From positions 32,001-96,000 of the IMG/VR virus record IMGVR_UViG_3300002895_000002: DNA of 64,000 nt; one strand, given 5' to 3'. This document shows positions 5,781-32,367 of the stretch, in pieces (the stretch's first letter is position 1; each line of letters opens with the position of its first letter). The DNA comes from a virus. Lineage: Duplodnaviria; Caudoviricetes. The notes below the pieces were generated by a model, which ran no database searches, was not told the origin of the DNA, and was given only the letters and a program-made list of their open reading frames with translations. A program made the position numbers and the translations under genes.

Positions 5781-5809
5781 TTGACAGGTCGCGTCTTTTC
5801 TATTATACT
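5781..5809 (+). promoter_or_regulatory. sigma70-type promoter
   Basis: TTGACA-17-TATACT. Confidence 0.75.
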
Positions 5810-5921
5810 CGTATCATAACTTGATAAATTACCGCAGTGAATGTCCGAACCAACAGCAGATAATCAAAACGGGTCCTAGACCCAAATAGCATTGAAAAAG
5901 ACATCAAATCTGGAGGCAAGA

Positions 5922-7535
5922 ATGGGCCTGTCCTGGTTCACAGATGAAGAAGTAGTTCCCAAGAAGGAAGCCAAACAAAAAGCAGCGAAAGGTGAGGCTC
6001 CCCTTCGTAAGGACGACATCAAGGAGATGAACGATGTCGAGCACATCCTTCACCGGCCGACTATCTACATCGGTTCCGTCCTTGAAGAAGACATCGAGAC
6101 TTTCGTCTACGAAAATGGGCGGGTGGTGTCCAAGCCTGTGAAGCAGATTCCGGGTCTGTGTAAGATCATTGACGAGATCATAGACAACTCCGTTGACGAG
6201 GCGATCCGGACCAAATTCCAGTATGCCACGAAGATTGATGTAACCTTCAAAGATGGAACGGTAACGATCGAAGACAATGGTCGTGGTCTTCCCATCGAGC
6301 AACGGGAAGATGGCAAGTGGACCCCGGAAGTTATCTTTACCAAAACCAAATCCGGCTCTAACTTCAACGACGACGGCCGGGCTACGATGGGAATGAACGG
6401 GGTTGGCTCATCCCTCACTAACATTTTCTCAACCATCTTCAGTGTAGATACCGCCAACGGTGTCAAGCGGTTCCGTCAGACCTACGAAAATTCCATCTCG
6501 AAGATTGGGAAGCCGAAGATTGAGCCTGGCAAGAGCAACTACACCCAGGTTTCCTTCAGACCGAACTATGATTACTTCAAAGCGTCAGCTGAGACCATAT
6601 CCAACCTGCCGTTGTTGATCGAGAAACGGATCAGGAACCTGGCGTTTGCGTTCCCTGAAATCCAGTTCCGGTTCAACGGTCAGAAGATTGCAGGCGGAAA
6701 CCTCCGTCAGTTCCTGTCACAGATCCACGAGGTGTTTGAGTACAACGAAACAGATGACGCCAGGATTGGCGTGTTCTTCTCAGAAAATGATTTCCAGCAG
6801 ATCTCGTTCGTCAACGGTCTCGAGACCCGCCGGGGTGGTGTACACATCGACCAGATAATGAACAGGATCGTTGACTACCTGCGGGACTACCTGAAGAAGA
6901 AGCACAAGATCGAGGTCAAGCCGGCGGACATCAAGAGCAAGATCTTCCTGATGTTCTCGATGCGTATGACCAACGCCCAGTTTGATGGCCAAACCAAAGA
7001 ACGACTGATGAACAGCATCACTGAGTTCAAGGACACAATCGAGGGTGTGATAACTGAGAAGTTTCTCAAGACCATCGCCAAGAACGAAGAGATCATTGCT
7101 CCCATCGTTGAGTCCTACAAGCTCCAGCAGCAGGTCAAGGAGAACCTGGAGCTCAAGAAAATGTCCAAGGTGGCCAAGAAGGTCAAGGTGGACAAGTATT
7201 TCTCAGCTACCAACGAGCAACGGTATCTTATGTTGTGCGAAGGCGACTCAGCGGCAGGTGGATTGATGGCAGCTCTGGGTAGGGACCAGTTCTCTTACTT
7301 CGCCCTCCGTGGTGTACCCCTCAACGCTCACGAAGCTAAGGTCAGTAAGATCACTGACAACGAAGAGCTCAAGAACGTGGTGCAGATACTGAATCTGGAC
7401 CTCACTAAGGACTTCCAGGACATTCCTGAAGGCAGCTTATGGTTCGAAGTTGAACTTGACGGTGAGAAAATAGTAGTAAATGAAAACGATGAAGTATATG
7501 TCAATGGTAAATGGATAAAGGTAACAGAACTATGA
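5922..7535 (+). CDS. DNA topoisomerase II large subunit, N-terminal part (T4 gp39-like)
   Basis: GHKL ATPase motifs EIIDNSVDE, EDNGRGLP, GMNGVGSSLTN; TOPRIM start CEGDSA and LRGVPLN; lacks DxDG; SD GGAGG before ATG 5922. Confidence 0.95.
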   Translation: MGLSWFTDEEVVPKKEAKQKAAKGEAPLRKDDIKEMNDVEHILHRPTIYIGSVLEEDIETFVYENGRVVSKPVKQIPGLCKIIDEIIDNSVDEAIRTKFQYATKIDVTFKDGTVTIEDNGRGLPIEQREDGKWTPEVIFTKTKSGSNFNDDGRATMGMNGVGSSLTNIFSTIFSVDTANGVKRFRQTYENSISKIGKPKIEPGKSNYTQVSFRPNYDYFKASAETISNLPLLIEKRIRNLAFAFPEIQFRFNGQKIAGGNLRQFLSQIHEVFEYNETDDARIGVFFSENDFQQISFVNGLETRRGGVHIDQIMNRIVDYLRDYLKKKHKIEVKPADIKSKIFLMFSMRMTNAQFDGQTKERLMNSITEFKDTIEGVITEKFLKTIAKNEEIIAPIVESYKLQQQVKENLELKKMSKVAKKVKVDKYFSATNEQRYLMLCEGDSAAGGLMAALGRDQFSYFALRGVPLNAHEAKVSKITDNEELKNVVQILNLDLTKDFQDIPEGSLWFEVELDGEKIVVNENDEVYVNGKWIKVTEL

Positions 7536-7723
7536 ACAACGAACGTTATCTAGTATATGACCCTGATGGCAACTTCGTAAACATACTTGACCTGACTTCT
7601 ATTCTTCATGACCATGCCGCATATAAAAAGCAATGGAAAGAAAAACAACAATGGAAAACCTCGGGTATACATTCGTTGAAGACATCGCATAAAAAACCGT
7701 CTAAATCATGGTCACATTTATAA
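7532..7723 (+). CDS. small hypothetical protein inside the topoisomerase cassette
   Basis: ATGA overlap with the gp39-like stop; 63 codons. Confidence 0.4.
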   Translation: MNNERYLVYDPDGNFVNILDLTSILHDHAAYKKQWKEKQQWKTSGIHSLKTSHKKPSKSWSHL

Positions 7724-7726
7724 ATA
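7719..7726 (+). promoter_or_regulatory. T4-type late promoter
   Basis: TATAAATA directly upstream of the HEG SD (GGAGG 7732). Confidence 0.75.
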
Positions 7727-7744
7727 GACATGGAGGAAAAAACA

Positions 7745-8827
7745 ATGCCATGTCCATTCTGTAACCAAGAAGTCATCAGTGAAAAACCATTTCGTTGCGT
7801 AAATGATGAATGCCGTTCTAAAGTGTTGAACAAACAGTCTAAAGAGTACATCAAAGTAAAAAATGGTTGGACCGATGAACAGGTAAAAGAGTATCTGTCA
7901 TCTAAGACCAAAGCCGGCCATTCCAAACGAGACCATTCGGTAAACCCCAATAGTCGAGAAGCATGGCGGCGTAGAGGACTTTCTGAAGAAGAAATAGACA
8001 CCGTCATGAAAGCCAAAGGACAGAAAGTAAGTAAAACACGAAAAGAACTCGGTCTTGGACGTGGCGACTCAAATAGCATGTCCAAGAAAAAAATGCTTGA
8101 AAGTGGAATGAGTGCTGAAGATGTGGAACTGTTTACCAGATCGCGCATTCATTCTTGTCCTGAGTACTGGGAGAAACGTGGTTACGACCGCCAGCAGGCA
8201 GAAAAACTCGCGGCTGATGCTGGCAAAACTATCACAAAAGAAAAACTTGGAGAAGAAGGTTTCAAACTAGCAAAACACCGGATGTCTAAAGTTGGTAGGA
8301 TGGAAAAACTCATCAAAGAAGTCGGTATTGAAAACGCCGAGAACGAGTTCATAAAGCGTTACATCAAGAACTCCTATATAAAGGTCGGCCGTTCATCGAA
8401 ACATGCGATGCGGCTATTTCTTCCCATTTATAAAATGTTGCGAAAAAGTGGTATGACGAAAAAAGACTTCTTTATCGGAACACATAAACGAAATGAAATG
8501 TTCATTCGCGATGGTAATGACATATTCTTCTATGACTTCGTTATCAAACCACTAAACCTTATATTCGAGTTCAAAGGAACTCACGTTCATCCTTCGCCGA
8601 ACATGTCCATTGAAGAAAGAAATCAGTGGCGGCACGCGTATTCAAAATGCTCAGCCGACGAAGTAGATAAAAAAGATAATCGCAAAAAAATAGTTGCAGA
8701 AAGTAGAGGTTATGTGTTATATTATATCTACAGCAACAACACCGACGAGCATAACATTTCTGAAATGGAAAGGATCATCAAATGCAAGATGCAAGATGTA
8801 AAAAGAAACTCATTGACCCGAAGGTAG
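7745..8827 (+). mobile_element. free-standing homing endonuclease, Vsr/DUF559-like PD-(D/E)xK catalytic domain
   Basis: N-terminal CPFC...CVNDEC zinc motif; C-terminal FFYDFVIKPLNLIFEFKGTHVH; AT-rich; splits the topoisomerase gene. Confidence 0.8.
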
Positions 8828-8925
8828 CCAAGAACCTTTATCAGAAACGGCCCAATGTTCGCCGGTCAACCAACATGTCACATGAATGCGTCGTGTTCGC
8901 TTCCGACCAAGACCTAGATGGTTGA
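8782..8925 (+). CDS. gp60-like ORF1 (47 codons, pre-bypass segment of the topoisomerase TOPRIM C-part)
   Basis: SD AAGGA 8770-8774; MQDARCKKKLIDPKVAKNLYQKRPNVRRSTNMSHECVVFASDQDLDG-stop; not in ORF track. Confidence 0.9.
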   Translation: MQDARCKKKLIDPKVAKNLYQKRPNVRRSTNMSHECVVFASDQDLDG

Positions 8926-8967
8926 CCTTCGGGTCAACTATCGATCCAACCTAAAGAGTAAATCGGC
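8917..8967 (+). other. programmed ribosomal bypass (hopping) element, 45-nt coding gap
   Basis: GAT GGT TGA CC TTCG GG TCAAC TATC...AAAGAG TAAATC GGC; 11-bp hairpin with C(UUCG)G loop; stops at 8923 and 8959; the hop restores DxDGxHI. Confidence 0.88.
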
Positions 8968-9366
8968 ATTCATATTCGTGGCTTATTATTGGCATTCTTC
9001 CACCGTTTCGCTCCGAGTCTCATCAAGCAGGGCCGTATCTGCTACCTGCAGACTCCCATCGTAACTGGCAAGAAGAAGGGCAAGATCGTCAAAGTGTTCT
9101 TCGATCTGTCAGAGTACCGTGCCTTCGCTCAGACAGAAGAAGCCAAGCAGTACCAGTTCGACTATCGCAAGGGTTTGGGAAGCTGGGACATTGACAGCGG
9201 CGAACTCCAGGAGGTCATCAAGCTCGTTGGAATGGAGAACATGCTGAAACCCTTCGAATGGTCCGATGAAGCTCCCAAGAAGATTGATGACTGGCTTGGT
9301 GGGAAGAACTCGGATGTTCGGAAGACCTACCTGAACGGTCGCAGCTTCAGCATCGACGGGATATGA
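8968..9366 (+). CDS. gp60-like ORF2 (post-bypass segment of the topoisomerase)
   Basis: IHIRGLLLAFFHRFAPSLIKQGRICYLQTPIV...YRKGLGSW; has no start codon before the essential HIR residues. Confidence 0.9.
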   Translation: MHIRGLLLAFFHRFAPSLIKQGRICYLQTPIVTGKKKGKIVKVFFDLSEYRAFAQTEEAKQYQFDYRKGLGSWDIDSGELQEVIKLVGMENMLKPFEWSDEAPKKIDDWLGGKNSDVRKTYLNGRSFSIDGI

Positions 9367-9371
9367 AATTC

Positions 9372-9400
9372 TTGACATTGATACCTATACCTGTTATTAT
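9372..9400 (+). promoter_or_regulatory. sigma70-type promoter
   Basis: TTGACA-17-TATTAT with TG. Confidence 0.75.
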
Positions 9401-9424: not shown

Positions 9425-10753
9425 ATGAAGATTGCAGATTTCTTTGCAAATGATTACACCGATTTTGCCACCTATGATAACTACCGCAACCTCGGTAGCT
9501 ACATAGATGGACTGAAACCGTCCATGCGGAAGATCGTCCACGTCTTTGACAAGAACAACATCACCACCCCAACCAAAGTAGAACAGCTCCAGTCCAAGAT
9601 CGCTGAGCAGACAGAATACCTGCATGGCTCCCATACGTTGGCGGGTGTTATCGTTAACATGTCAACGAGCTACCCTGGCACCAACAACATGCCGCTCCTT
9701 CTCCCTAAGGGTAACTTCGGTACGCGCTGCGTTCAACGTGCGGCGGCTGGCAGGTACATCTACGCATCAAAGGCACCGGCATTCAGTAAACTGTTCAGGG
9801 CGGAAGACAGACCCATCCTCATCGAGCAGGAGTTTGAGGGGACCATCATTGAGCCGAGATTCTTTCTCCCTGTCCTTCCCTTGCTCCTAGTAAACGGTTC
9901 TGAGGGCATTGGAAACGGCTACAGCCAGAAGATCCTCCCTCGTGATCCCAAGCTCCTAGCCAAACTAGTCTTTGAATACCTGACCAAAGGCAAGCTCCCC
10001 AAGAACATCCCACCTTACTTCGAGGGCTTTCAGGGAACAGTCTCTCCCGTTGAAGACAACCCGGGCTCGTGGGTTATTACCGGATGTCTCGAGAAGACAG
10101 ATCGGGCAACTCTCAGAATAACCGAAGTCCCGGTTGGGTATGATCTCGAGGGTTACACCAAGAAGCTCGACGACCTTGAAGAGAAGAAAGTAATCAAAGG
10201 CTACACCGACCGCTCCGACGGTAAGAACAAGATCTGTTTCGACGTCAGGGTTGATCTCGAGTTCATGCGGAAGCCGTTGGAGTGGCAGTTAGCTCAACTC
10301 AAACTCACCCGCAAGTTTAGTGAGACTTACACCTGTCTTGATGAGAATAACGGAATCCGTGAGTTTGAATCTGAGGTTGAAATCCTTAAGGCCTACTGTG
10401 ACTTCCGTGTCAAACAGTATGATGTCCGGAAAGCCTATATTGAAGGAAAGCTCAAGCAGGATATTGGTGTACTGAAGGAAAAGGCCCGCTTCGTTGAACT
10501 GGTAGTAACCGAGAAGATAAAGATCTTCAGGATGACTAAGGTCTATATCGAAGAGCAGTGTGAGAAACATAAGCTCTCGAAGAAGGATGGCTCGTATAAT
10601 TACCTGACCGGCCTTCCCATCCATTCCCTCACCGAAGAGAAGATAGATGAACTCAAGGCTGAGGTTGTGAAGAAGGAAGAGGAGCTTGACTGCATCAGTA
10701 AAACCCCAGCTCAAACCATGTGGATCAACGATATCAAAGAGGCAGTAAAATAA
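9425..10753 (+). CDS. DNA topoisomerase II medium subunit (T4 gp52-like)
   Basis: DGLKPSMRK, YLHG, GNFGTR...AAGRYIY (catalytic Tyr), LVNGSEGIGNG. Confidence 0.95.
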   Translation: MKIADFFANDYTDFATYDNYRNLGSYIDGLKPSMRKIVHVFDKNNITTPTKVEQLQSKIAEQTEYLHGSHTLAGVIVNMSTSYPGTNNMPLLLPKGNFGTRCVQRAAAGRYIYASKAPAFSKLFRAEDRPILIEQEFEGTIIEPRFFLPVLPLLLVNGSEGIGNGYSQKILPRDPKLLAKLVFEYLTKGKLPKNIPPYFEGFQGTVSPVEDNPGSWVITGCLEKTDRATLRITEVPVGYDLEGYTKKLDDLEEKKVIKGYTDRSDGKNKICFDVRVDLEFMRKPLEWQLAQLKLTRKFSETYTCLDENNGIREFESEVEILKAYCDFRVKQYDVRKAYIEGKLKQDIGVLKEKARFVELVVTEKIKIFRMTKVYIEEQCEKHKLSKKDGSYNYLTGLPIHSLTEEKIDELKAEVVKKEEELDCISKTPAQTMWINDIKEAVK

Positions 10754-31616: not shown

Positions 31617-32367
31617 GTTTGCTACATCCGGGAATTCGACCCCGGACCCAACCCATTTCTAAATAATGTTGAGCTTGCTCTGGAGAAACCAGGAAATGCT
31701 GAGAATGGTTAGTCACCCATACCTTACCTTTGGTGTTACTGACCATCCCTTTCATTGTTTGTTTTCTTTTTTCGTTTGATTCGGGTGTTGGTGGCTGTCC
31801 TTTGGGGTGAGAATAGAATTTTTCTTTCGTGTGAGCAGGCCACCCCATCTGGTATCCCATTTCAAGATACCGAGGAACCTCTTCGGGTGGTACTCGAAAA
31901 CACCCAGAACTGTTATGAACAACCTTTCTTCCCGTAAACTTTTTAGATCGATTGATATAACCAGCCTTGCAATTTTCAGTTCCGTGAGGAGGAGTATCCC
32001 CTCCATCCGTACTGTTTGTCAATGGACCACCATTGATCGTTCTACCAATCAAAGAAATAAGAAACGGTTCGTAGCAATACAGAGCAGTAAACTCAACCAG
32101 GTTGGAAGATGTTTTTATAATATAATCTCTTATATCAAAATGCTGCATTATAGCCCGAATGGTGTTGTTTTTATGTTTATTCGTACATCTCTCCATGCTT
32201 TTCTTCTGCAAGTGATATCTCCATCTATCACCAGTACCCTTACCAACATAGAAAGGTTCATAGAAGAAGGTAACGAAATTTCCGTAGGTATATCTTCCGG
32301 GCTTCCGAGGGTCAAGATAGATGTAGACATAATACTTGGGTTCGTGGGAGAACTTTGCTGTTTTCAC
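31588..32367 (-). mobile_element. GIY-YIG (LEM-3-like) homing endonuclease
   Basis: YYVYIYLDPRK...PFYVGKGTGDR; repeated KVVHNS/KVWVTNH domains; SD GAGGTG + GTG. Confidence 0.85.

Follow-up and report, generated by a model that had tools for sequence, protein, structure and literature searches.

A probable mobA/gene 60-type mobile cassette with a Vsr-like nuclease in the topoisomerase II gene of a distant T4-like phage

For many years the translational bypass in gene 60 was seen as peculiar to bacteriophage T4. According to Manning and Atkins (bioRxiv 10.1101/2022.08.31.505936), the MobA element is made up of a C-terminal extension (CTE), the MobA endonuclease, an N-terminal extension (NTE, comprising a unique part and homR) and the bypass. 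That preprint and its supplements also describe metagenomic clades in which a GIY-YIG or a VSR endonuclease has replaced MobA, discuss the exchange of cargo, and list one such case, 'MGS12, clade 11', with a putative VSR endonuclease and GGU/GGC as take-off and landing codons, its source being a UViG in IMG/VR that was obtained from enrichment cultures of the Chocolate Pots hot spring. The same preprint credits Bonocora et al. 2011 with showing that the gap protects its allele from MobA in T4, and cryo-EM of T4 topoisomerase II depicts a Toprim insertion of roughly 70 residues as an external pendant that aids assembly. The present analysis concerns a 64,000-nucleotide stretch, hereafter the window, of a phage genome in IMG/VR (positions 32,001 to 96,000 of record IMGVR_UViG_3300002895_000002, which is 213,116 bp long and rated complete). 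Here the Toprim domain of the gene for the topoisomerase II large subunit (Topo2L) is interrupted, very probably by a mobile cassette of the T4 mobA/gene 60 type that has reached a distant T4-like phage and in which MobA is replaced by a Vsr-like homing endonuclease.

The locus is identical to MGS12 as far as the latter is printed in the preprint: strings from the tail of the first open reading frame (ORF1), from the ORF2/bypass DNA and from the nuclease occur verbatim in MGS12 entries (ORF1 as 'cl11_ORF1_MGS12', the nuclease as 'MGS12_VSR_endo'), and the printed stretches match the window. A mobile frame with exchangeable cargo is thus both supported here and already known and, because the insight has been published for this very sequence, the value of the analysis lies in confirmation and in small refinements. 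These are the boundaries of the cassette, the fold of the nuclease, a small ORF, a late-promoter segment, a presence/absence pair for a Vsr-type cassette and a Vsr-like homologue inside a split intein. The preprint parts and supplements searched make no mention of the coupled small ORF, of conservation in the late-promoter segment, of the 24 recoded nucleotides after the landing codon or of the match to the I-Bth0305I fold, and contain no near-identical cassette-free partner for the MGS12 sub-lineage such as the L003/L013 pair described below. Two relatives recur in what follows: L003, the nearest cassette-bearing one, whose nuclease is 61% identical to that of the window and whose layout is the same, and L004, with a nuclease 35% identical and the same layout except for the small ORF. 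The whole cassette region reads on the + strand, and its gene order and all its motifs are legible straight from the sequence (Table 1).

Table 1. Features of the cassette, followed by those of its surroundings, in window coordinates; GC3 is the G+C content at third codon positions.
Feature	Position	Strand	GC3	Basis or remark
Whole inserted cassette, about 1.57 kb	7422..8991	+		GC3 break; limits homologous to L003/L013 boundaries
CTE of gp39, non-topoisomerase	7422..7535	+	26%	missing from unsplit close alleles P0015, P0016
Small ORF, 63 aa	7532..7723	+	36%	ATG overlaps gp39 stop (ATGA)
T4-type late-promoter motif TATAAATA	7719..7726	+		18 nt before nuclease ATG
Possible hairpin GACAUGG/CCAUGUC around nuclease Shine-Dalgarno (SD) sequence and AUG	7727..7754	+		fold -9.6 kcal/mol, z -1.4
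Vsr-like (EDxHD-type) putative homing endonuclease, 360 aa	7745..8827	+	41%	AlphaFold model, fold match, motifs
NTE of gp60-like ORF2, 47 aa: unique part with nascent-peptide motif, then homR	8782..8922	+	51%	
homR within NTE	about 8875-8922	+		MSHECVVFASDQDLDG; corresponds to SLSHDAVVFASDQDLDG of unsplit allele
Take-off stem-loop, 11 bp, UUCG-closed	8917..8942	+		holds take-off GGT (8920-8922) and TGA stop (8923-8925)
45-nt coding gap	8923..8967	+	40%	TGA; second in-frame stop TAA 8959; mini-SD GAG 8956-8958; landing GGC 8965-8967
Eight post-landing codons (IHIRGLLL), cassette-type AT-rich, recoded	8968..8991	+	25%	
gp39-like ORF1, Topo2L N-terminal piece ending in cassette-encoded tail	5922..7535	+	69% (gp39 body)	stored gene call P0014
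gp60-like ORF2, host-derived remainder, TOPRIM_C	8992..9366	+	70%	Pfam PF16898, E 9.8e-10
gp52-like topoisomerase II subunit (GyrA/ParC-type)	9425..10753	+		Pfam PF00521, E 2.7e-66
Sigma-70-like promoter TTGACA-17-TATACT, upstream of gp39-like ORF1	5781..5809	+		consensus scan, 11/12 positions; pattern match only
Sigma-70-like promoter TTGACA-17-TATTAT with TG, upstream of gp52-like gene	9372-9400	+		promoter scan

An earlier reading made from the DNA alone, without database searches (the sequence-only reading), had held that the gp39-like gene ends in a tail foreign to topoisomerases, and this is the case: the last 38 residues of ORF1 are lacking in P0015 and P0016, the unsplit homologues nearest to it (78-80% identity over this region), which run uninterrupted through KDFQD-SLSHD(A/C)VVFASDQDLDG-IHIRGLLL. 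The similarity of this CTE to a T4-type gp39 tail, that of phage HY01 (locus L001), is clear, with 21/31 residues identical (68%, E 7e-15 by BLASTP) and 70.7% identity between the DNAs, whereas the enzyme bodies are 38% identical; the T4 tail that the sequence-only reading had quoted was essentially right when compared with the HY01 tail. A weaker version of the CTE terminates gp39 of the Campylobacter Firehammervirus phages. The database survey of the tail motif proposed in that reading, carried out by searching 1.84 billion representative proteins with a profile built from five tails, yielded 35 matches, the genuine ones being without exception C-termini of gp39 fragments or genes and the others WG, SH3 and Ig repeat proteins, that is, spurious beta-repeat matches. 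Since the genuine matches are gp39 C-termini only, the CTE motif is specific to split Topo2L. A complex prediction for gp39(436-547) and the 47-aa NTE returned a score of 0.01, which speaks neither for nor against their association.

Another origin of the two extensions has to be weighed at this point, namely that the gp39 tail and the gp60 head are the remains of a degenerate split intein that lost splicing and kept association. In the metagenomic phages L005-L008 a genuine split intein does occupy the same Toprim motif (TDAD|C...HN|CDG, with the junction SHN|CDG; L005:7134-10510), 9 nt from the bypass position, and a homologue of the window nuclease, a 351-aa Vsr-like ORF in L005, lies between its halves in all four; a paralogue, a Vsr-like gene of 378 aa in L005, directly adjoins the upstream end of gp39 there and likewise in L006-L008. 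By eye, moreover, the tail resembles the strands of intein block B. Pfam scans argue otherwise: neither the five tails nor ORF1, CTE or NTE of the window gave a Hint or Intein_splicing match, whereas the L005 halves included as controls did, and the CTE profile retrieved no intein from the protein set just described. Besides, some 20 residues separate the split point from the intein site downstream of it, and an IntN is far longer than the tail. An intein-relic origin of the tail is extremely unlikely, and was rejected on the strength of the five-tail scans and the profile search.

The gene 60-type bypass gene announced by the sequence-only reading is present at the other end of the insert. 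The gp60-like 47-aa ORF ends in ...SDQDLDG-TGA, and a frame reading IHIRGLLLAFF... opens 45 nt further on and continues to 9366. Deletion of 8923-8967 restores DQDLDG-IHIRGLLL, exactly the parental protein found in the unsplit P0015 and P0016, which read KDFQD-SLSHDAVVFASDQDLDG-IHIRGLLL and with which the window agrees once the cassette parts are removed. The sequence displays take-off and landing codons served by one tRNA, an adjacent stop, a stem-loop and a mini-SD within 5-7 nt of the landing codon, GAG standing 6 nt before GGC. The take-off stem-loop folds at -17.4 kcal/mol (z -2.3), and its UUCG-closed architecture is identical in L003, L004 and the T4-type HY01. From take-off to landing, the DNA of the window is 62.7% and that of L003 78% identical to HY01, and the window gap aligns with the 50-nt T4-type gap with a single 5-nt alignment gap. 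The NTE, whose first 46 nt overlap the nuclease ORF in another frame, carries the nascent-peptide motif Y..Q..NVRRS, whose invariant Tyr and (Q/K)..NVRRS stretch are common to T4-type gp60; in multiple alignment A5 the residues shared are Y20, V26, R28, S29 and the D.D.DG motif. BLASTP of the 47-aa NTE against the T4-type NTE alone produced no alignment, the homology being visible only in the multiple alignment and in the DNA.

Could the gap simply go unbypassed, yielding a 47-aa peptide plus a C-terminal fragment made by re-initiation, or could it be excised from the RNA? The gap keeps the reading frame, a TTG beside it (8989) may serve as a start, and no public sequencing runs containing the locus are listed, all of which leaves room for such a scheme. 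A product started at 8989 would nevertheless lack IHIRGLL, and the DxD strand would be left on the 47-aa peptide; no intron-like structure was seen; and all hallmarks of the T4 bypass (codons, stop, UUCG hairpin, GAG at 6 nt, nascent-peptide motif) are conserved. This alternative is accordingly very improbable, and bypassing by homology with T4 is the preferred explanation.

What sets the cassette apart from that of T4 is its cargo. The sequence-only reading had called the nuclease Vsr/DUF559-like and had begun its ORF at 7730. The ORF is present, but its start is the ATG at 7745 (SD GGAGG, 7734-7738), as both the stored gene call P0002 and the L003 alignment indicate; the family assignment stands at the level of fold and motifs and fails at that of Pfam, where neither a Vsr nor a DUF559 family (E up to 0.1), nor HNH, was matched. 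Searches against PDB sequence profiles gave no match, Vsr included, and those against PHROG an unnamed PHROG only. The protein, encoded once in the genome, combines an N-terminal CxxC...C..C zinc-ribbon-like motif, helical repeats and a C-terminal nuclease domain (about residues 218-364, numbering from 7730), for which the confidence of the AlphaFold model (pLDDT, predicted local distance difference test) exceeds 85. VIA-align superimposed the model on the catalytic domain of I-Bth0305I (3r3p_A, Z 9.6, 95/97 residues, root-mean-square deviation 2.9) and on Vsr (1cw0, Z 9.5; 1vsr, Z 9.0); Foldseek gave a weaker result for 1vsr, with probability 1.00 and an E of only 0.03. Seven homologues were found in databases, and in the alignment of the eight sequences D269, E280, G283 and H287 are invariant, while D316, which matches Vsr D97, is conserved in most. 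The D-11-E-7-H spacing is that of D51, position 62 and H69 of Vsr, including the extra Glu, a correspondence drawn from spacing and not from a residue-level structural alignment. It is by this extra Glu that Dassa et al. 2009 (PMC2677866), whose Vsr numbering is used here, distinguish the Vsr-like homing family. The N-terminal part has no Pfam NUMOD match, and repeated helical W..RG.S.EE motifs appear in it both in the alignment and in the model.

The limits of the insert turned out wider than the 7413-8827 of the sequence-only reading. Because GC3 is 69-70% in the host gene and drops sharply to 25-51% in the coding segments of the insert, the latter is placed at 7422-8991, so that it comprises the CTE, the small ORF, the promoter, the nuclease, the NTE, the bypass gap and 24 recoded nucleotides after the landing codon. 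It sits in the Toprim domain of Topo2L between EGDSA and DxD, where it replaces a short stretch of host codons, as comparison with P0015/P0016 and of L003 with L013 indicates. The latter pair is telling. L003, which carries the cassette, and L013, which is free of it, are metagenomic sequences that share 94.5% identity as far as the KDFQD codon and 96.3% on the downstream side; the break at the 5' edge is clean, the eight post-landing codons of L003 differ from those of L013 at eight positions, all synonymous, and the two agree fully in the stretch shown after these codons. Since the flanks are near-identical and only L003 has the cassette, the whole unit was gained or lost recently in the L003 lineage. 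Together with the homology of the CTE, NTE motif, UUCG hairpin, GAG spacing and gap DNA to their T4-type counterparts, this presence/absence pair and the GC3 break at the insert edges support the proposal of a homologous mobile frame. The companion proposal, an exchangeable nuclease cargo, is supported as well: the Vsr-like enzyme of the window is unrelated to the HNH MobA, the tail-bearing gp39 of L018 is followed by a GIY-YIG gene, and no nuclease follows the tail-bearing gp39 of the Campylobacter phages and of L016.

Between the CTE and the nuclease, the small ORF and the late promoter foreseen from the sequence are both present. L003 has a 69-aa counterpart of the small ORF at the same place (L003:1876-2085), conserved in its N-terminal part only (Y.VYD..G..VNI.D.T), and the L004 cassette is without one. 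No usable match was obtained with the small ORF in Pfam, PHROG or Atlas. Its C-terminal part is apparently frame-shifted relative to L003, a frame-1 peptide (7651-7692) resembling the C-terminus in L003. The ORF may be in decay, or the 5' part may be all that matters. Two origins of the small ORF were considered and set aside: that it is a duplicated CTE, since a CTE hidden Markov model run on six-frame translations of the three cassettes found the true CTEs only, and that it is a GIY-YIG relic, a by-eye comparison with the N-terminus of the L018 GIY-YIG enzyme being unconvincing and leaving that idea unsupported. As for the promoter, TATAAATA occurs seven times in the window against 0.83 expected, an eight-fold enrichment (the other six copies are at 2770, 25576(-), 29311, 29395(-), 32379 and 58603), and the pre-nuclease segment CATAAAAAACC...AATCATGGTCACATTTATAAATAGA is almost completely conserved with L003, the adjoining coding DNA being about 70% identical. 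All three cassettes allow a hairpin that covers the SD and AUG of the nuclease, its 5' arm lying at the expected late start or upstream of it; the one in L003 is the only one to reach significance (z -2.6), and that of L004 is visually strong. In the window, the 5' arm would be absent from the transcript of the late promoter. Such regulation would resemble the restriction to late expression described for T4 homing endonucleases, and Dassa et al. 2009 (PMC2677866) noted similar hairpins.

These elements can be assembled into a pathway. The nuclease would probably be made late, from its own TATAAATA promoter, and would cut or nick the gene of co-infecting relatives that lack the cassette, within the conserved DxDxDG-xHI coding sequence or close to it. 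Recombinational repair would then copy in the whole 1.57-kb unit, a step that the presence/absence pair in relatives supports, and the unit would replace roughly 75-100 nt of the host gene with a recoded copy (homR and the eight post-landing codons) having the 45-nt gap inside; gap and recoding together would presumably render the carrier allele immune to the nuclease. If the homology with T4 extends to function, host function would be preserved in two ways: ribosomes would hop from GGU to GGC over the gap, and the CTE on gp39 and the NTE on gp60 would help the split Toprim to reassemble.

Several points weigh against this account. The target of the nuclease and the protective role of the gap are suggested by analogy. 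The nuclease family is deduced from short motifs and a model of medium confidence (mean pLDDT 70), with no Pfam or PDB sequence match, and the hairpin at its ribosome-binding site is, in the window, statistically indistinguishable from shuffled sequence. Finally, the cassette-free allele closest to the phage of the window has only about 74% DNA identity and, none closer having been found, recent mobility is demonstrated for the L003 lineage and not for the genome of the window.

The lack of a near-identical cassette-free allele for this phage also speaks for the view that the cassette is a fossil, in which the Vsr-like gene, whether passenger or inactive relic, mobilises nothing and in which the split and the bypass are merely tolerated; so do the partly frameshifted look of the small ORF relative to L003 and the loss or pseudogenisation of the endonuclease in T4 and several other lineages, which the preprint (10.1101/2022.08.31.505936) reports. 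A fossil is nonetheless unlikely, considering that the 360-aa ORF is intact and keeps all invariant residues of the catalytic motif, that conservation is higher in the promoter/SD region of the nuclease than in the surrounding coding DNA, and that a sister lineage is polymorphic for presence of the cassette at about 95% flank identity.

Within the mobile-cassette reading, a more ambitious version is conceivable, if doubtful: that the cassette holds functional parts so far unpublished and that the relatives of its nuclease are a lineage specialised on the Toprim DxDxDG motif. One such part may be the translationally coupled small ORF and another the late promoter with its ribosome-binding-site hairpin, a unit that may limit the nuclease to late infection; the 24-nt recoded flank and homR could be the real immunity determinant, to which the gap only adds. 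The closest relatives of the nuclease appear to form a lineage specialised on DNA coding for Toprim DxDxDG, and this lineage appears to be rescued by two interchangeable devices 9 nt apart, the split intein at DAD|CDG and the bypass at DLDG|IHI. If true, the shared target site would explain how a Vsr-like nuclease displaced MobA. Independently of this, distant phages with the same frame and a different nuclease present the bypass and the tails as a portable host-rescue module for selfish DNA, and the 45-nt gap, the GGU/GGC codons and the UGA stop are natural variants for mechanistic work.

ORF1 begins at the ATG at 5922 and encodes 537 residues (547 from an alternative upstream TTG at 5892), with the HATPase_c, DNA_gyraseB and Toprim EGDSA-half domains of Pfam, and the enzyme body is 38% identical to T4-type gp39. 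The two near-perfect sigma-70-type promoters before both topoisomerase genes suggest early transcription by the host polymerase in this T4-like phage. The phage collection contained no near-identical DNA, and two scans of IMG/VR for close relatives returned Campylobacter phages only, or nothing.

The L004 contig, which bears a Vsr-type bypass cassette, also has an RNA ligase gene (RNA_lig_T4_1) that seems to be split (L004:11373-13059), with an intein-splicing match and an intervening reverse-strand ORF. In the P0024 contigs (also P0034) a single phage has its Topo2L broken at several points: an IntC fragment at EGD|SA is followed by Toprim and CTE, a 343-aa ORF and TOPRIM_C, and a gp52-like gene has its own intein; this multiply fractured Topo2L resembles MGS5 of the Manning and Atkins preprint (10.1101/2022.08.31.505936). 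In Campylobacter phage CP21 (L020, 173140-179859) a gp43-like DNA polymerase is annotated in many pieces, between which lies CP21_248, a distant homologue of the window nuclease.

Three known systems bracket the locus. With the T4 mobA/gene 60 cassette (HY01, L001) it shares the Toprim insertion site between EGDSA and DxD, homologous CTE, NTE, homR, UUCG hairpin, mini-SD spacing and gap DNA, and the out-of-frame overlap of the nuclease ORF with the start of the NTE; it differs in having a Vsr-like nuclease where T4 has the HNH MobA, a gap of 45 instead of 50 nt, GGU/GGC and UGA in place of GGA/GGA and UAG, an extra small ORF between CTE and nuclease, and a length of about 1.57 against about 1.1 kb. 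With I-Bth0305I and the EDxHD endonucleases (Dassa et al. 2009, PMC2677866; Taylor et al. 2011, PMC3239194) it has in common the catalytic fold, the D...E...H motif with the extra invariant Glu, a free-standing gene placed where a phage gene of DNA metabolism is broken in two, and a hairpin/promoter unit upstream; by contrast, the window nuclease has a Cys-rich N-terminus and W..RG.S.EE repeats with no Pfam NUMOD match, and its host gene would be rescued by tails and translational bypass instead of an intron or split intein. Genes fractured by split inteins (Dassa et al. 2009, PMC2677866), exemplified by Topo2L of L005-L008, are interrupted in the same gene and the same Toprim metal-binding motif and harbour a homologous Vsr-like gene in the break, whereas in the window, where there is no Hint domain and no protein splicing, the protein stays in two pieces and the ribosome would skip the interruption in the DNA.

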